Assembly: GCA_027031495.1 (NCBI GenBank)
Contig: JALVQA010000006.1
Location: 16,952 to 80,951, forward strand
From: Candidatus Moraniibacteriota bacterium
GTDB lineage: Bacteria > Patescibacteriota > Minisyncoccia > Moranbacterales > GCA-2747515
Direction: 5' to 3'
DNA length: 64,000 bases
Part shown: positions 26,853-35,771 of the stretch, in pieces
Layout: every line of letters begins with the position of its first letter
Position numbering within the stretch: position 1 is the first letter of the stretch
Program-made: the position numbers and the translations under genes
Notes under the pieces: model-generated
The model's database searches: none
Told to the model about the DNA's origin: nothing
What the model saw: the letters and a program-made list of their open reading frames with translations, nothing else

Positions 26853-26888
26853 AAACATTCTCCATGCGGAGAATGTTTTTCTTTTTGC
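26853..26888. terminator. Bidirectional rho-independent terminator between the convergent genes
   Basis: 11-bp perfect stem AAACATTCTCC / GGAGAATGTTT flanked by an A-run upstream and a T-run downstream. Confidence 0.7.
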
Positions 26889-27748
26889 TAACGGTTTTCT
26901 TTTGTATGTGACGGCGATCGTTCAATGGGATTTTTGCCACGTACCCAATCAATATACCCACCCTTAAGTGTTTTGGTTGTGAAATTGAGATCATAGAGAC
27001 GAACGCCGGCACGAAAGCTATCCAACGATGTTGAGCCGTAAACTATAATATCTTTTGTTATTGGTATGGAGGAACGTCTACGTTCAATGCTGGCAAGAGG
27101 GATATTTACAGCATAAGGGATGTGACCATCATTAAACTGTGTGCGCGACCGTACATCTAAAATGAAATAATGTCGTCCTTCACCCTTCTTTTTTTGTTCA
27201 ATAATCTCACGGAGCTCCTCTGGTGTAATGTAGGTTATTTTTGAAATATCAACAATAGATTGTGGGTTACCGGCAGAGATCATAAGACCGCCAGCTCTCT
27301 TCCACGCATCTATGCCGCCAGAGAGAACAACAACGTGATCATTATTTTTCTCAAGAATCTTGACGATCTTTGAGATCGTCTCAGCATTTAATTCATCAAA
27401 TGCCACAACAACCATGTCAGCATCATAATGAGGCGTGATATTGTTTTTTACAATTTCATCTGCGGGAAGATTTGTTGAATCAACAATATGCACTTTCTCA
27501 AATTGCGTTCTTCGACGCACATCAACAATGACAACACTCTTCGGATTTCTGCGCATTTTTTTGCGAATAATAGCAGGTTCAATCTCTGTGTAATCATAAT
27601 CAATAAATGACTCATCATCTATTGATTCTGTAGTCGCAATATCGCGGAGCTCTTCACTTTTCTTATTTACGCGCATGAGGGAAAGAAAAATGACAACTAA
27701 AATGAAAAAAACACCGAGTGCGAGAACTTTTTTGTTTTTTACTGGCAT
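26888..27748 (-). CDS. Membrane-anchored tandem rhodanese-like domain protein lacking a catalytic cysteine
   Basis: N-terminal TM followed by two rhodanese-like segments (VVIVDVRRRTQFEKVHI...; YFILDVRSRTQFNDGHIPYAVNIP). The protein contains no Cys at all, so it cannot be a sulfurtransferase. Confidence 0.55.
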   Translation of the reverse strand: MPVKNKKVLALGVFFILVVIFLSLMRVNKKSEELRDIATTESIDDESFIDYDYTEIEPAIIRKKMRRNPKSVVIVDVRRRTQFEKVHIVDSTNLPADEIVKNNITPHYDADMVVVAFDELNAETISKIVKILEKNNDHVVVLSGGIDAWKRAGGLMISAGNPQSIVDISKITYITPEELREIIEQKKKGEGRHYFILDVRSRTQFNDGHIPYAVNIPLASIERRRSSIPITKDIIVYGSTSLDSFRAGVRLYDLNFTTKTLKGGYIDWVRGKNPIERSPSHTKENR

Positions 27749-29501: not shown

Positions 29502-31028
29502 GTGTATATATTTTTTATAAAGATACATAAGCATAATAGATTTGTTAGTATTGTCTTTTTTGTTGCGCTCTTTACGGCATTATTTGTACCAACGAGAGTT
29601 TTTGCTGTGCCGCCACCAGATATCGTTGTTGGTATTGCATCATCAGTTGTGCAGATTTTCTCGTTTATTGCGGTGTTCATTGTTGGTGCCTTCTTCAGTG
29701 TTGCGCGTTTTGTTGGTGAACTGTGGCGCGTACGTCTCCTGCGTTTTCTTACCATTCTCATTCTTGGTGCTGTGATTGGCATTGGTGTGCTTTATAGCGC
29801 AAACGTGTGGAAGGCACGTCAAGTAGAACGTACATTGCACGATATAGATAAGGAATATACTGCAATGTCTGGCAATAGTAAAGCGCCTTCACAATATAAT
29901 GCTACGATTGGCAGCAATACTAAGGTTGCGGTAGCGCATCATAGTGCAAGTGATGAAGCGATGATAGATGACACTACTTCCGGTGATTATGATCGTTTTG
30001 TGTCATTTGTGTCGGCGCACAACGATGCGCGTTTTCACTTAGTGGAGGATTTTTATCATGCAATCGTTAATGGTGATCTTGATTATGCATATACACTTTT
30101 TGTACCGACAGTGCCACAATCTGTTTTTCAGGAGCGCTTTCGTAGTGTAGAGCGAGTCGTGATCTATCGTTTGTGGTCACTTTCTGATATATATATTGGT
30201 GGCGATATTGCGTTATGTGAACAAACTCTGTGTGTGCGTTACGAAGTGCGCATGTTTCTAAATATTGATGCACAGGGTAAAGTGCACAATATTAGTGCAT
30301 ATACAATGTATGTGCGTGACTCATTTGATCCTAATCAGCATGTAGTGCCGGACGCTGGTGGCACAAAGCCAATTACCAATAAAGCGCTGCAAAAAATTTT
30401 AGAAACACAATCAAAAGATGCATATATTGTATTGGATGCACGTGAAGATGCGGAGTACAAAAATGGTACGTTGCCGGGCAGTGTGCACATTCGACCAGCT
30501 GACATTCGTGCTGGTGCATGGCAAACGTTACCGCGCGATGTACCAATTTATGTGATGTGCTGGTCCGGCATTCGTGGTAGACAAGTAGCGATGTTTTTGC
30601 GAAGAAAGGGGCGTATGGCTGACTATTTGGAACATGGTGCGAAGAGCTGGGTTGATAGCGGTGGCATGTGGGAAGGTGGAATTTCTTTTAAAAAGAAGTA
30701 TTCCGCAAAGCGGTACAGTTATGTCTTTTCTCTTGCAGAGTTAAAAAAGGAAATGGCTGCTGGTGCCATAATCATTGATACGCGAGAAGTTGAACGCTTT
30801 GATGCGTATCATATCCCGTACAGCACCAATATCTCTTTCTTTGAAACACCGCGCCGTGACCGCGCACTTCTTTTGGCACAAGTACCAAAAGGACATCGTG
30901 TCATAACAGCGTGCGATGGGTATGTTAATTGTTTTGATGCGCGTATTACCGGCGTCGCGCTGGAGGAAGAGGGTTATACATTTATCGGACGTTTTGCGCC
31001 AGTCGCCGCTTACAAAAAAGTACAATGA
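29502..31028 (+). CDS. Membrane protein with two C-terminal rhodanese domains, the first carrying a Cys
   Basis: N-terminal signal/TM region with two more TMs. Rhodanese domain 1 is IVLDAREDAEYKNGTLPGSVHI...IYVMCWSGIRGRQ (a CX4R-type loop). Domain 2 is IIIDTREVERFDAYHIPYSTNI...VITACDGYVNC. It overlaps the downstream gene by ATGA. Confidence 0.55.
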   Translation: MYIFFIKIHKHNRFVSIVFFVALFTALFVPTRVFAVPPPDIVVGIASSVVQIFSFIAVFIVGAFFSVARFVGELWRVRLLRFLTILILGAVIGIGVLYSANVWKARQVERTLHDIDKEYTAMSGNSKAPSQYNATIGSNTKVAVAHHSASDEAMIDDTTSGDYDRFVSFVSAHNDARFHLVEDFYHAIVNGDLDYAYTLFVPTVPQSVFQERFRSVERVVIYRLWSLSDIYIGGDIALCEQTLCVRYEVRMFLNIDAQGKVHNISAYTMYVRDSFDPNQHVVPDAGGTKPITNKALQKILETQSKDAYIVLDAREDAEYKNGTLPGSVHIRPADIRAGAWQTLPRDVPIYVMCWSGIRGRQVAMFLRRKGRMADYLEHGAKSWVDSGGMWEGGISFKKKYSAKRYSYVFSLAELKKEMAAGAIIIDTREVERFDAYHIPYSTNISFFETPRRDRALLLAQVPKGHRVITACDGYVNCFDARITGVALEEEGYTFIGRFAPVAAYKKVQ

Positions 31029-32419
31029 TACAGGATGCAAAATATACACGCCTTGTGCGATTACAACATATCGTACCAGTGCCACCGTTTACCTACATTC
31101 GACGAGGTGATGTTTTTGATGAAAAGACTTTACCAAAAGGTGAACGCTTTATTGTGCGTGGTGTAAGCGCACACGAAGATGGTGTCACGTCGTCGCATGC
31201 CGGACAATTTATTACAATCGGACCGTGTGATGTTGCGGCAGTAAGAGATGCTGTGGCAAAAATTTTTTCTCATCCGTGGGCGATTGGCGCAATTGTGCAG
31301 GTGTTTGTAGATGCGCCAAGTGGCGTGGCATTTTGCTTTACGCGCGAACGTCTCTATGTTGAATATGCGCGTGAGCACGAGGGTGTGACAGCTGGTACGG
31401 TCAATCCTTCTGTTGCTCTTTTGCCGAGTGTATTGCAGCGATACAATGCGTTGACGCGCTCGCTTCAGCGCATTTACGATGTATTCGGCGCGTGTGATGT
31501 AGAGTTTGTCGGTATCGAAAATCCTTCTTTTGTGCAGGTGCGACCGATTACGCAACTGTTTAATGTTGATGAAGATATAGCGCGATGCAAAATGATGCTT
31601 CAAGAAATGGTACCGGCACAGTGGGTGGAGAACGATCTCTCAGAAACAATTGCCGAACGCAGTGCAGATGCAGCGCGCTTTTGGCACGTCTATCGCAAAG
31701 CAATGGCACGTTTTTGTCATGAGGTTCTCCATGAAGAATGTGTCATTCCGCATGACGCGGTTGTGCGTATTGGACAGCAGTATTTCGTGCGACGTGACCT
31801 TATTCAAATACAAACACTTACATTTAAGCGCATGATGAAGTTTTTGCTGTATTATGCGCGTTATAAGGATGTTTTGCATGATGTGCGTGCGTGTGATGAT
31901 GCGCCACTAGATGTGATAATAATGCGCAACTACTGTATTGCTATTGCGCATTCTCTGTGGCATACTCGCTTTTTCTTTGCACTTCGTCAACGTTATCGTG
32001 CTGTTATTGACGTGCGATTACGACGATATACTGCGGAGAAGAATGCGGATGTGATAGTAACATTTCCTCTAAAACAGGCACTTGCATCACCATTGCGTTA
32101 TAATCGCCAGCGGCTGTGCTGGGATGCGTTTACACCTCGTACGGGCGCCGGTACAGCTGTTGTAGAAGGTGAACTTTCCGATGGTCCATTTTTTTGCTAC
32201 GAACCGGGTGCGTCAATCCCGGACGATGTTGTCGTGCTTACATTACATCTTTATGCGGAAATCGGTGCTGCGTTACCACGTATTCGTGGTGTAATTTGTG
32301 CGCATGGCTCTCTCAATGCACATGTGGCAATTCTCGCACGAGAAACGCGTACACCACTGATAATTAATGCGCCACTCGAGCGCTACAAAAAGTGCGCTTT
32401 TGCGTCGGAAGCGAAATAG
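31025..32419 (+). CDS. PEP-synthase/PPDK-like phosphotransferase: PPDK_N nucleotide-binding region plus phosphohistidine swivel domain, no PEP/pyruvate TIM-barrel domain
   Basis: FIVRGVSAHEDGVTSSHAGQF and IVQVFVDAPSGVAFCFTRE match the PpsA/PPDK ATP-grasp region (VRSSAxxEDxxxASFAGQ; VQxMVxxxxSGVxFT). The C-terminus GVICAHGSLNAHVAILARETRTPLII is the PEP-utilizers mobile His domain (GGxxSHAAIxAREhGIP). The GGK N-terminal motif is absent. Confidence 0.6.
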   Translation: MIQDAKYTRLVRLQHIVPVPPFTYIRRGDVFDEKTLPKGERFIVRGVSAHEDGVTSSHAGQFITIGPCDVAAVRDAVAKIFSHPWAIGAIVQVFVDAPSGVAFCFTRERLYVEYAREHEGVTAGTVNPSVALLPSVLQRYNALTRSLQRIYDVFGACDVEFVGIENPSFVQVRPITQLFNVDEDIARCKMMLQEMVPAQWVENDLSETIAERSADAARFWHVYRKAMARFCHEVLHEECVIPHDAVVRIGQQYFVRRDLIQIQTLTFKRMMKFLLYYARYKDVLHDVRACDDAPLDVIIMRNYCIAIAHSLWHTRFFFALRQRYRAVIDVRLRRYTAEKNADVIVTFPLKQALASPLRYNRQRLCWDAFTPRTGAGTAVVEGELSDGPFFCYEPGASIPDDVVVLTLHLYAEIGAALPRIRGVICAHGSLNAHVAILARETRTPLIINAPLERYKKCAFASEAK

Positions 32420-32436
32420 TATAGACATTTTTTATG

Positions 32437-34452
32437 TCAAACAATGCTTATCGGATCAACATCAATGATTGTGCGTGGTGGTGTTGCGCGCAGAAGTATG
32501 GAGAGTGTTTCAGGGAGTGGCGCGGTATCTTTTGTTTTGTTTGGGATGCGTATGATAATTTGGTAGCGGTAGAGACCACGTCGCTTTGAGAGGAGTGGTG
32601 TATGTGGATCGCTGACGCGCCATGCGTTTTTTGTATTACATTTTGTAATTTTTGTGTGCCATGTGGTAGCGTATGCGTTCGCTTTATCTTTGTCTTTATG
32701 TTGAAATATAAGCTTGATAACGCGCCAGTACGGTGGGTAGTGGAGGAGTTTGCGCTCTGCGAGCGTATCTTTGCGAAAAGCTGTGTAGTTAAGTGTTTTT
32801 GTATATGAAAAAAGGTGATAATCCGGCTTGTATGTTTGCACAAAAACCGTTCCGTTCTCCGCATTTTTATGTGTGACAGCCGCAGTGGCATTACTAATAA
32901 AAGCAAAGAGGCGTTCATCGGCGCTAATATCCGGAATGGATAAAAGTGCATCCGCATCAATGATGCCAACGACACTTAAATGTGGATTGCGCCAATCTTT
33001 GAGCGCCATTTGCGTGCCAATAATAATGTCAATTTTTTCGTCCTCACACTTCTTGAGTATTTCCGTTGCTGCATGTGTGGCGCGCATGCTGTGGCCATCA
33101 ATACGTACAATGCGCGCAGTGGGAAAGAGTTTTGTAAGCATGTTTTCAATCTTGCTCGTGCCGTAGCCGATATTACGAAAACTCATATTTTTACAATGTG
33201 TGCACTGCGGAAAAATAGATGTTGTATACGTGCAATGAAAACATTCATAATGTCCTTCGGCAGTGAGAACAAGTGCGCGATCACAGTCGGGGCAAGCGAG
33301 AAGTGCGCCGCAGTCAGTGCAGAGTGAAAACGCGCTCATACCTTTGTGATTAAAAAAGAGAAGGGATTGTTTCTTGCGTGCAATAGCGCTGCGTATTGCC
33401 TCAATAAGTGTTGGTGAAAAGAGAGCGGGCGCTGGCTTTTTGCGCTTCTTTTTTTGCGCTTCTTTAACGCGCTCAAAGTGTACGGCACGCATGTCAATAA
33501 TATGTATTGATGCTGACGAGAATTCTGGTCCGAGTGGTGTTGGCACTTTTTTTGTAATGCGTGGTGCGGCACTAACGGCAACAAGCTGGCAGTTGTGTAT
33601 GCGCGCAAGTGTTTGTGCGACGGAGCGCGCATCAAAGCGTGGTGCGCGATCCCATTGTTTAAAACTTATATCGTGCTCTTCATCTACAATAACAAGGCGC
33701 AAGTGTGCAAATGGTTGAAAGAGTGCTTTTTTTGTACCAATGATAATGCGTGCCGTATTATTACGTATTGCTTGGTGAGTGCGCCACAGTGTACCCTTGG
33801 CAATTTTGTTGTGAACGACAACGATTTCGTCAGGATTAAAGTATGTACGTAGTGCAGAAGCTATCTGTTCTGCAAGGAGGATTTCCGGCAAGAGAAAGAG
33901 GATTTGCGCTGTTTTTTGAGCAGTAAGGATTTTGTGTATAAGGTGCAGATAAAGTGCATCACGTGCTGTTTCTTGCGTATCGCGTAAAAGATTAAATGTG
34001 TATTTCTCTTGCGCAAGAATATCCGTGCACAGAGAAGTTGTTGTTTTTGTAAGTGGTGGGATATTTTTTGTGTGCGTATGTGATATTGTTGGTGTATCTT
34101 GTATGCGTGCATGTGTTGGCGGTGTATAGAACTGTGCTATTACTGTACCGAGTGAAGTAAATGTTGTTTCTGCAATGTGCGATGCTAATGCAATTTGCTC
34201 ATGTGTACAATAATTTTTATGGATGATGCGCGTAATTTTTTTAAGTTGCATTGATGTGCTTTTGCGTGGCTTTGTGACACGACATTGAAGAACGATGCCG
34301 TGTACGGTACGGCGAAAAAGAGGAACCGATACAAGTGTGCCCGGAGAAATTGGTCTATCACTTGTATACCAAAAAAACTGCTCTCGTGTGAGCGGGATGG
34401 TTGTAAATGGTACGATATCGCAAAAGTAATTGTGTGGTGTTTTCTGTGACAT
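32437..34452 (-). CDS. priA: Primosomal protein N' (replication restart helicase PriA)
   Basis: DEAH-type helicase (VIVDEEHD) and the PriA zinc-binding Cys cluster CTDCGALLACPDCDRALV...CFHC...CTHC. Confidence 0.85.
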   Translation of the reverse strand: MSQKTPHNYFCDIVPFTTIPLTREQFFWYTSDRPISPGTLVSVPLFRRTVHGIVLQCRVTKPRKSTSMQLKKITRIIHKNYCTHEQIALASHIAETTFTSLGTVIAQFYTPPTHARIQDTPTISHTHTKNIPPLTKTTTSLCTDILAQEKYTFNLLRDTQETARDALYLHLIHKILTAQKTAQILFLLPEILLAEQIASALRTYFNPDEIVVVHNKIAKGTLWRTHQAIRNNTARIIIGTKKALFQPFAHLRLVIVDEEHDISFKQWDRAPRFDARSVAQTLARIHNCQLVAVSAAPRITKKVPTPLGPEFSSASIHIIDMRAVHFERVKEAQKKKRKKPAPALFSPTLIEAIRSAIARKKQSLLFFNHKGMSAFSLCTDCGALLACPDCDRALVLTAEGHYECFHCTYTTSIFPQCTHCKNMSFRNIGYGTSKIENMLTKLFPTARIVRIDGHSMRATHAATEILKKCEDEKIDIIIGTQMALKDWRNPHLSVVGIIDADALLSIPDISADERLFAFISNATAAVTHKNAENGTVFVQTYKPDYHLFSYTKTLNYTAFRKDTLAERKLLHYPPYWRVIKLIFQHKDKDKANAYATTWHTKITKCNTKNAWRVSDPHTPLLSKRRGLYRYQIIIRIPNKTKDTAPLPETLSILLRATPPRTIIDVDPISIV

Positions 34453-34679: not shown

Positions 34680-35771
34680 ATGTCAAAAGAAGGAAAAAGT
34701 GGCACTTATGAAGGCTTTTTTGAGCAAGTCGTGCATGATTTGCCACAGCGTTCGCGCGAAGTTTTGCGACGACGCTTTGGTATTGAATCTGGTGAACCGC
34801 AGACACTTGATAGCATTGGCAGACAGTATGGATTAACGCGTGAACGTATCCGACAAATCGTTGATAATAGTATAGAAAGTGTCAAAGAAGCGGCATCGCG
34901 TGATATTGCGCAAAAAATCTATTCTTCTCTTGAAGATGAGATTCGCAGACGTGGTAATATTATGGTTGAAGAGGAATTGATGAAAGTTGTTGCATCGGAT
35001 AACGTGACTGAACGAGGCGCTGTTCGCTTCTTTTTAGAAACAGCAAAAAATATCAGATATCTTAGGCGTAAAGACGTTTTTAAAACAGTTGTCCATGTTG
35101 AGTTTGATGAACAACAGTGGGAGCGCGTGAAAGATATTGTTAAGGCAATTCTCTCTGAGGTTAAAGAGCCGCTTGCACATGATATTTTACATCAGCAGTA
35201 TCGGCAACATCCTGAAGCGCACGAAGACGTTGATGAGGAGCTTCTTCACCACTATCTTCAGCCGGTTACTGATATCAAGAAAAATCCATTTGGGCGATGG
35301 GGTATGGCGCATTGGCGTGATGTAACACCGCGCGGTATTCGTGAGAAGATCTACTTGATTTTGAAAGAGCATGGTGAGCCGATGCACTTTAGGGAGATAG
35401 CGGCATATATTGATAAATATGGCCTTAATAAACAGCCGGGCAAAAAAACGAATGTGCAGACTGTGCACAATGAGTTGATTAAAGATCCGCGTTTTATTCT
35501 TGTTGGCCGCGGTCTTTATGGGCTTGATGAGTGGGGATATACACCTGGTACGGTGCGTGATGTTATTACAGCAATTCTAAAGAAACATAGTGGTGGTCCT
35601 ATGAAGACGGAAGAAATTGTTGAAGAGGTGTTGAAGGTGCGCAACGTGCGAAAAATGACCATTATTGTCAATCTTAATCAGTTCTTTAAGAAGGTTGGAC
35701 GCGGTCTCTATACATTACCGGACGATACTGACACAACGCTTCGCACCAATGGTGACGCATATAAAAAATAA
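34680..35771 (+). CDS. Putative transcription factor: sigma-70 region-4-like HTH followed by three HARE-HTH repeats
   Basis: N-terminal REVLRRRFGIESGEPQTLDSIGRQYGLTRERIRQI matches sigma-70 region 4. Three repeats ending in F.RWG/VGRGLY.L.EW (e.g. GEPMHFREIAAYIDKYGL...GKKTNVQTVHNEL...FILVGRGLYGLDEW) match HARE-HTH, the fold of the RNAP delta subunit. Confidence 0.55.
   Translation: MSKEGKSGTYEGFFEQVVHDLPQRSREVLRRRFGIESGEPQTLDSIGRQYGLTRERIRQIVDNSIESVKEAASRDIAQKIYSSLEDEIRRRGNIMVEEELMKVVASDNVTERGAVRFFLETAKNIRYLRRKDVFKTVVHVEFDEQQWERVKDIVKAILSEVKEPLAHDILHQQYRQHPEAHEDVDEELLHHYLQPVTDIKKNPFGRWGMAHWRDVTPRGIREKIYLILKEHGEPMHFREIAAYIDKYGLNKQPGKKTNVQTVHNELIKDPRFILVGRGLYGLDEWGYTPGTVRDVITAILKKHSGGPMKTEEIVEEVLKVRNVRKMTIIVNLNQFFKKVGRGLYTLPDDTDTTLRTNGDAYKK

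Follow-up and report, generated by a model that had tools for sequence, protein, structure and literature searches.

In a stretch of 64,000 nucleotides from a Candidatus Moraniibacteriota bacterium (contig JALVQA010000006.1; hereafter the window), an open reading frame (ORF) for a 508-aa membrane protein with rhodanese domains overlaps an ORF for a 464-aa protein that resembles part of a phosphoenolpyruvate (PEP) synthase. The locus raises the question of whether the second protein is a functional enzyme, and of what the two do together. A first reading of the window, made from the letters alone (the sequence-only reading), had suggested a two-component phosphoryl- or sulfur-transfer module containing a truncated phosphotransferase similar to PEP synthase. 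In the current study the 464-aa protein (dik) was found to be intact and to belong, as a compact form, to the PEP-utilising dikinase superfamily. Its gene is almost always accompanied by that of a membrane-anchored tandem rhodanese (rho), and these rhodaneses form a single orthologous family. The module has three parts rather than two, the 508-aa protein being a fusion of a small membrane protein (sm) to the rhodanese. The hub of the module is sm, which occurs free-standing, fused to rho or fused to dik. The pair in the window is a compact variant of a much larger module of the candidate phyla radiation (CPR).

Conservation of a three-part gene module

Hidden Markov models (HMMs) for dik, rho and sm were run on the six-frame ORFs of all loci, and loci with enough flanking sequence were counted as informative. 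In the search from the dik side, rho was present in 25 of 27 non-redundant informative loci, and a single locus lacked sm among those in which its presence could be judged. In the contexts of diverse homologues, sm was an unannotated ORF of 79–91 aa immediately upstream of dik. In the search from the rho side, a scan of metagenome contigs gave 80 loci, nine of which end too early for the downstream gene to be judged; all 71 informative loci had a match to the dik HMM directly downstream on the same strand. The partner in all but one of the rho-side loci was a longer dikinase of 600–706 aa (the long form, see below), overlaps of 4–11 nt between the two genes were typical, and 18 pairs of rho and long dik were judged, from matching lengths of their longest contigs, to share a contig. 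A search for the gene pair in other genomes had been proposed as a check on the sequence-only reading, and the pair passed it from both sides: the two genes keep together in archaea as well as bacteria, in three different orders, far more than chance would allow.

These orders were sm-dik-rho in Proteobacteria, rho-sm-dik in archaea, and an sm::rho fusion followed by dik in CPR, including the window. A divergent homologue (P0107, 125 bits to the dik family profile) was still located directly behind an sm::rho fusion. As a separate gene, sm was found in Gammaproteobacteria and archaea; it was fused to rho in CPR, and fused to dik in lineages that read TGA as glycine. In two natural fusions of the latter kind (P0088 and P0090), a signal peptide, the VP motif and the first transmembrane helix (TM1) of sm are joined straight to dik, the second helix (TM2) and most of the loop being absent, and one of the two retains a rhodanese gene just upstream. 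The protein collection had rendered the TGA codons of both as tryptophan, while these organisms read them as glycine. A fusion of rho to dik, hinted at by the name 'Sulfurtransferase, partial' of another entry (P0439), was rejected; the entry lacks any rhodanese domain and is a long-form dikinase under a wrong name.

Among 5.8 billion proteins searched, 84 compact dik homologues were recovered, all of 440–475 aa and with about 97% query coverage. When 1.84 billion cluster representatives were searched exhaustively with an HMM, about 1000 relatives came up. About 25 full-length dik clusters (counted at 50% identity) scored above 310 bits, followed by fragments and then by proteins of 600–700 aa at about 90–130 bits, so that the family has a sharp boundary. 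Among 185,579 species genomes compact dik was found at 22 loci only, all in metagenome-assembled genomes, labelled Gammaproteobacteria/Thiotrichales/Chromatiales, Moraniibacteriota, 'Bdellovibrionales', Woesearchaeota, Methanosarcinales and 'Bathyarchaeota'. The next-nearest family of the cluster-representative search was the long form (typically about 670 aa), with more than 300 clusters from Gracilibacteria, Peregrinibacteria, Uhrbacteria, Falkowbacteria and other lineages. When long and short forms were aligned, the ATP-grasp domain, both ends of the central domain and the swivel domain matched, and about 200 extra residues lay in the middle of the long form. The module is one of few multi-gene sets common to Patescibacteria (hundreds of long-form lineages), DPANN archaea and some Gammaproteobacteria of sulfur habitats.

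Source databases name these proteins 'hypothetical', 'PEP-utilizing enzyme', 'PEP/pyruvate-binding domain-containing protein' or 'phosphoenolpyruvate synthase/pyruvate phosphate dikinase'. The last name is given by JGI to several long forms, none of which carries the pyruvate-binding domain. Names of PEP synthase (PpsA) or pyruvate phosphate dikinase (PPDK) on proteins that lack this domain could lead to false calls of gluconeogenesis in CPR reconstructions.

Clustering of neighbouring genes in the 80 CPR loci revealed no further recurrent neighbour. A cptA-type phosphoethanolamine transferase was found only in a gammaproteobacterial subset, where it adjoins the module in eight loci and overlaps the start of sm in four. 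It lies on the same strand in L008 (2868–4763; NF007933, 704 bits), L025, L026 and L027, and nearby in L005, L020, L021 and L023. Farther upstream, a gene for an 81-aa protein resembling acyl carrier protein was observed in L008, L026 and L027. The upstream ORFs of L026, L033 and L034 gave no Pfam match. No phage or plasmid copies of the dik module were found, and none of the PADLOC models of anti-phage defence matched dik, rho or sm; a defence system or mobile element was ruled out on these grounds. The literature search found no description of a pairing of rhodanese and dikinase, and one CPR paper that mentions rhodanese concerns a different pair, sdo-rhodanese. The combination of genes thus appears to be previously undescribed, although the enzyme classes themselves are familiar.

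The compact dikinase and its membrane-anchored partner

The domain order of dik is that of rifampin phosphotransferase (RPH): an ATP-grasp nucleotide-binding domain, an acceptor domain, and a C-terminal swivel domain with the histidine. The AlphaFold2 (AF2) model was confident (mean predicted local distance difference test score, pLDDT, 90.9; predicted template modelling score 0.86), and its best structural match was RPH. In the ATP-grasp domain the motifs VRxxSxxED...SxAGQ, IVQ, CDVEF and VQVRPIT, which are PpsA/RPH signatures, were invariant family-wide, and the profile match of dik to PpsA/RPH spanned the same three ATP-grasp blocks. The key residues are K6, R45, E51, D52, S57, A59, G60, Q92, E160, Q171 and R173; P174 was likewise invariant in the family alignment. 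The swivel domain was matched by PF00391 with 35.5 bits (cut-off 23.1) at residues 399–450, and within its motif (GxxxxH-VAILARE) H433 was invariant in 34 short and 42 long forms. Of the central domain, which presumably holds the acceptor site, only R321 and R325 were conserved across short and long forms.

Most of what the sequence-only reading had said of this protein was borne out. The three peptide strings that it quoted all occur in the 464-aa translation, the nucleotide-binding signatures and the phospho-His swivel are there, and the structure prediction that it called for agrees with an RPH-like rather than a PEP-synthase architecture. No PEP/pyruvate TIM barrel was detected by Pfam or NCBIfam, and the protein ends with the swivel domain. 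Of the two Pfam families named as a check, PF00391 was recovered, whereas PF01326 (PPDK_N) reached only 16.4 bits, under its cut-off of 27. PF01326 is a precomputed match in about half of the dik homologues and in all long forms, and the ATP-grasp domain is established by fold and motifs despite the subthreshold score. Two statements did not hold. The N-terminal GGK motif is not truly lost, since a near-invariant lysine, K6 (motif ETKAxRL), occupies its position; and the label 'truncated' is misleading for a compact subfamily within a larger family of proteins of about 670 aa. As had been noted, priA follows the gene and remnants of a TIM barrel are lacking. With the convergent priA only 17 bp away there is insufficient space downstream for lost domains of dik.

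The closest comparison is with RPH (EC 2.7.9.6; PDB 5hv1, 5fbs, 5hv6), but its rifampin-binding domain of about 430 aa has no detectable similarity to the central domain of dik (about 190 aa, and about 400 aa in the long form). RPH is also soluble and stand-alone, while dik is tied to a membrane rhodanese. No NCBIfam RPH model matched the 464-aa protein, which falls outside the RPH family, and the long forms scored about 77–125 bits against a cut-off of 999. With PpsA and PPDK, dik shares the ATP-grasp domain, the phospho-His swivel and presumably the pyrophosphoryl-His chemistry; these enzymes have a TIM barrel and a central swivel, whereas in dik the barrel is absent and the swivel is C-terminal. 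All of their NCBIfam models scored far under the cut-offs on dik, which is thus neither a PEP synthase nor a PPDK. The best NCBIfam match of the ATP-grasp domain was PRK05849 (30.5 bits, E = 1e-7), far under the cut-off of 501. This model presumably describes the Cj1418-type L-glutamine kinase of about 790 aa encoded in capsule loci, a dikinase with a non-pyruvate acceptor. In the phenol-type two-component kinases (phenylphosphate synthase; HpeHI, PDB 9goj), the ATP-grasp and swivel domains reportedly reside on separate soluble subunits; unlike dik, these kinases have no rhodanese or membrane partner.

The partner protein in the window has an architecture shared by more than 160 full-length homologues from Patescibacteria. 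Its AF2 model (pLDDT 81.5) begins with three helices, which are followed by a disordered linker, an alpha+beta domain and a tandem rhodanese modelled with confidence. The sequence-only reading had described a cysteine-containing rhodanese, and this was confirmed by the Pfam Rhodanese family (PF00581), which matched two stretches with 77.4 bits (cut-off 22.2), and by the invariant C353. In rho partners from both bacteria and archaea the DxRE..E motif, the cysteine and arginine of domain 1 and the C-x5-C-F motif of domain 2 (CYSKSTCF in L115) were invariant. The same reading had also left room for a Cdc25-type phosphatase, and here it failed. The loop of domain 1 is of the six-residue sulfurtransferase type, CxxGxR (C-x4-R). 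The seven-residue loop of Cdc25 and Acr2 (H-C-x5-R) is found in neither domain, domain 2 having C-x5-C without arginine. The structural neighbours of the tandem rhodanese were thiosulfate sulfurtransferases (top matches 6mxv and 1yt8), and no Cdc25 or Acr2 structure was among the top 50. The rhodanese is therefore of the sulfurtransferase and not of the Cdc25 phosphatase type.

Exported rhodaneses such as PspE, Sud and YnjE likewise carry extracytoplasmic domains of the sulfurtransferase type, and weak NCBIfam matches to PspE were obtained. These proteins are soluble and periplasmic, and they lack the sm hub, the C-x5-C second domain and the dikinase partner. The accessory alpha+beta domain between linker and rhodanese (AF2 secondary structure at residues 176–275, pLDDT about 90) had no Pfam match and is NTF2-like by the pattern of its secondary structure only. 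It was present in most CPR fusions and missing from L013/P0305 and from every free-standing rhodanese partner. The linker varies in length among homologues, and in many CPR fusions it contains TSP3 calcium-binding repeats (PF18884).

The N-terminal part of the 508-aa protein aligned with the free-standing sm proteins of 79–91 aa (79 bits to the sm HMM), and AF2 placed helices at residues 39–74 and 79–123 in this region. All sm proteins are built alike: a signal-peptide-like start ending in (A/V/S/T)-x-A, an invariant (V/I)-P, a first helix with a conserved lysine or glutamine about 17 residues in, a basic loop and a second helix. The site of (A/V/S/T)-x-A followed by (V/I)-P was conserved family-wide, and A35, V36, P39 and D40 were invariant among CPR fusions, suggesting that the 508-aa protein may be cleaved by signal peptidase I. 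No Pfam or NCBIfam model matched sm. Two other identities were considered for it. A protein like HPr or TusA was ruled out, sm being a signal peptide followed by a two-helix membrane protein. An exosortase 'VPxxxP' sorting signal, prompted by the succession of VP, helix and basic residues, was dropped because no NCBIfam sorting-domain model matched and the motif is N-terminal instead of C-terminal.

Charge distribution and fusions point to one orientation. The loop between TM1 and TM2 (about 6–15 residues, predicted to be cytoplasmic) had a mean charge of +3.4, compared with +0.2 after TM2, and in free-standing rho partners the N-terminal anchor is flanked by positive charge on its N-terminal and negative charge on its C-terminal side (N-in). 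Since an enzyme that depends on ATP must be cytoplasmic, the sm(TM1)::dik fusions place the C-terminal end of TM1 inside; TM2 would then lead out, and the rhodanese domains of the window protein would lie outside. It is therefore likely, by these rules of sequence, that the rhodanese domains are outside and dik in the cytoplasm, the two being joined at the membrane by sm. The TSP3 repeats of the linkers, which are of an extracellular type, would fit this placement, and the AF2 model of the 508-aa protein is in agreement with it. With the partners on opposite sides, direct phosphotransfer from the swivel histidine to a rhodanese cysteine is unlikely. Of the phosphoryl- or sulfur-transfer module put forward by the sequence-only reading, the architecture and the coupling stand; its parts list was incomplete, and the direct phosphoryl transfer to the rhodanese is probably wrong, given the predicted topology and the sulfurtransferase-type loop.

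Possible functions of the module

The reading favoured here, with a probability of roughly 40%, is that dik, sm and rho form a three-part trans-membrane module with a shared membrane-associated acceptor. By analogy with PpsA and RPH, dik would take the beta/gamma-pyrophosphate of ATP onto H433 and then release Pi, and the swivel domain would carry the phospho-His to an acceptor held by the central domain (R321/R325). As a speculation, the acceptor might be a small molecule, either membrane-permeant or associated with the membrane, which would receive its phosphate inside the cell. The outward-facing sulfurtransferase might then act on the same molecule, so that O-phosphorylation would come first and thiolation by the persulfide next, the two steps being split across the membrane. 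A shared acceptor is suggested because a single membrane hub holds both enzymes, because no additional partner is needed, because RPH-like enzymes typically use hydrophobic hydroxyl compounds (their acceptors are mostly hydrophobic hydroxylated small molecules), and because chemistry that couples O-activation by ATP to a rhodanese persulfide is well established. ThiI, MoeB/MOCS3-rhodanese and YcaO-TfuA follow the same logic of pairing; these systems work in the cytoplasm by adenylation or YcaO chemistry and have no homology to dik, whereas the predicted topology of the present module puts its halves on either side of the membrane. The tethering of dik by fusion, together with a cptA gene that seems to share the operon in four gammaproteobacterial loci, supports a membrane or envelope theme.

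Several points weigh against the shared-acceptor module. No rho gene was found near dik in L004, L010, L033 and L116, PF01326 stayed below its cut-off, and a fold search with the central domain of dik returned no informative relative that would hint at a ligand. The acceptor is a guess, and catalysis is a prediction by analogy. The topology has several independent lines of support, but these are sequence rules and fusions. If the partners do lie in opposite compartments, the substrate would also have to pass through the membrane or extend across it, and an intermediate bearing a phosphate would not readily flip.

A bolder form of this idea, which is improbable as it stands, is a trans-membrane machine in which cytoplasmic ATP, through dik, would activate a membrane-borne substrate, or sm itself as a DltX-like carrier, and the extracellular two-cysteine rhodanese would then draw on that activation to install or remove sulfur at the cell surface, where ATP is absent. 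If true, ultra-small episymbionts (CPR, DPANN) would gain energy-coupled sulfur chemistry on the envelope or on scavenged lipids. With this gene pair, the PEP-utilising dikinase superfamily would come to include a membrane-tethered form whose sulfurtransferase partner is predicted to be exported, and the compact 464-aa form offers a tractable entry point for biochemistry.

The layout of the module also resembles a generic one of bacterial signalling, with a sensor outside, a two-helix transducer and a His-phosphorylating enzyme inside. In such a trans-membrane sensor-kinase the external rho/sm would use its cysteines to sense sulfane sulfur or redox state, the C-x5-C pair possibly serving as a redox switch, and would control cytoplasmic dik, whose output would be a phosphorylated metabolite or protein of the cytoplasm. 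We regard this as unlikely, because the neighbourhood holds no conserved response regulator or other output partner, the loop that sm exposes to the cytoplasm has only about 6–15 residues, and the conserved central domain with R321/R325 resembles a substrate site. Moreover, we know of no PEP-utilising enzyme that acts as a receptor kinase.

Inside-out control of the rhodanese would result if dik phosphorylated its own membrane partner, on Lys, Arg, Ser or Thr of the basic loop or of the N-terminal tail. The fusions do place dik right at the loop, and the superfamily includes both protein-directed transfer (Enzyme I to HPr) and N-directed transfer (the glutamine kinase Cj1418). This reading is improbable, given that no phosphorylatable residue of the loop is invariant across lineages and that TM2 and the greater part of the loop are missing from the sm(TM1)::dik fusions.

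There is only a small chance that the proteins are two independent, co-expressed protections, namely phosphorylation of a toxin by an RPH-like enzyme and detoxification of cyanide, sulfite or polysulfide by an external rhodanese. RPH is a resistance enzyme and the short form is patchy across distant phyla, in keeping with such a role, but the adjacency in 71 of 71 loci, the three gene orders and the fusion of both proteins to sm argue for a physical complex, and signals of plasmids, phages or defence islands are lacking.

A chalcogen trap is slightly less probable again. Here the external rhodanese would mobilise sulfane sulfur or selenium, and permeant sulfide or selenide would be converted inside to thio- or selenophosphate by dik acting like SelD. 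The stoichiometry (ATP to AMP, Pi and X-P) matches that of other dikinases, the two invariant arginines could hold a small anion, and the habitats, judged from sample and contig names, seem sulfidic or anoxic (cold seeps, sediments, groundwater). Yet in sulfidic habitats H2S crosses membranes unaided, a central domain of 190–400 aa is large for so small a substrate, and to our knowledge no enzyme of the PpsA type has been seen to act on sulfide or selenide.

A relay like that of the phosphotransferase system (PTS), from the swivel phospho-His to a rhodanese cysteine (as in the phospho-Cys of EIIB or in Cdc25) and onward, draws on the rhodanese fold being common to Cdc25 phosphatases and on the obligate pairing. 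It is very unlikely, since the rhodanese domains are predicted to be extracytoplasmic and the domain-1 loop is of the six-residue sulfurtransferase type and not CX5R, with sulfurtransferases as structural neighbours; in addition, no HPr-like or other conserved partner was found near the module, and sm is a membrane hairpin, so that the module does not classify as a PTS-type relay.

A decayed or truncated ppsA can be dismissed, as the sequence-only reading had expected, for although dik falls short of PpsA in length and has no TIM barrel, a length of about 450 aa is kept in 84 homologues with invariant catalytic residues, the gene has no room downstream, and the AF2 model is confident.

Coordinates and surroundings of the gene pair

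The positions of the genes and domains are collected in Table 1. The four bases ATGA at 31025–31028 contain both the stop of the 508-aa ORF and the start of the 464-aa ORF; the overlap described in the sequence-only reading, with its coordinates and shared bases, was verified in the window.

Table 1. Features of the gene pair in the window and of the sm(TM1)::dik fusions in other loci
Feature	Position	Strand	Remarks
Rhodanese fusion ORF	29502-31028	+	508 aa, GTG start; signal peptide, sm module, linker, alpha+beta domain, tandem rhodanese
Signal-peptide-like segment	29502-29606	+	ends V-F-A, then V36-P; predicted signal peptidase I site
sm module	29607-29798	+	VPPPD motif, TM1 (invariant Q51), basic loop, TM2
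Low-complexity disordered linker	29799-29996	+	pLDDT <50 at residues 122-162
Accessory alpha+beta domain	29997-30329	+	residues ~166-276; three helices and four-stranded sheet
Rhodanese domain 1	30369-30677	+	loop C353-W-S-G-I-R358; Cys codon 30558-30560; Pfam stretch 297-384
Rhodanese domain 2	30714-31025	+	C471-x5-C477-F; codons 30912-30914 and 30930-30932
Compact dikinase ORF (dik)	31025-32419	+	464 aa, ATG start
ATP-grasp nucleotide-binding domain of dik	31025-31570	+	residues 1 to ~182
Family-specific central domain of dik	31571-32149	+	residues ~183-375; presumed acceptor site
Phospho-His swivel domain of dik	32150-32419	+	H433 (codon 32321-32323) within G-S-L-N-A-H-V-A-I-L-A-R-E
priA	32437-34452	-	convergent with dik
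sm(TM1)::dik fusion P0090	L115 203-1756		natural fusion, TGA=Gly (code 25)
sm(TM1)::dik fusion P0088	L116 2235-3779		natural fusion, TGA=Gly (code 25)

The gap of 17 bp mentioned above separates the end of dik from the stop codon of priA. A promoter scan around the pair gave 11 sites, near chance when compared with 8.0 expected from shuffled sequences. Terminator-like sites numbered 10, compared with 3.9 in shuffles, yet these were located within coding regions. GC skew was positive in all 2-kb bins of the window (1–64000) and the cumulative skew climbed monotonically, indicating that the window holds no skew switch, i.e. no signal of an origin or terminus.

A second membrane-anchored tandem rhodanese is encoded at 26888–27748 on the reverse strand (286 aa; Pfam Rhodanese, 79 bits). 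It matched the HMM of the partner rhodaneses weakly (56.8 bits) and contains no cysteine at all, and therefore cannot be a sulfurtransferase. Near priA, a 363-aa protein encoded at 34680–35771 on the forward strand combines sigma-70 region 4 with two HARE-HTH stretches, which is an unusual combination.

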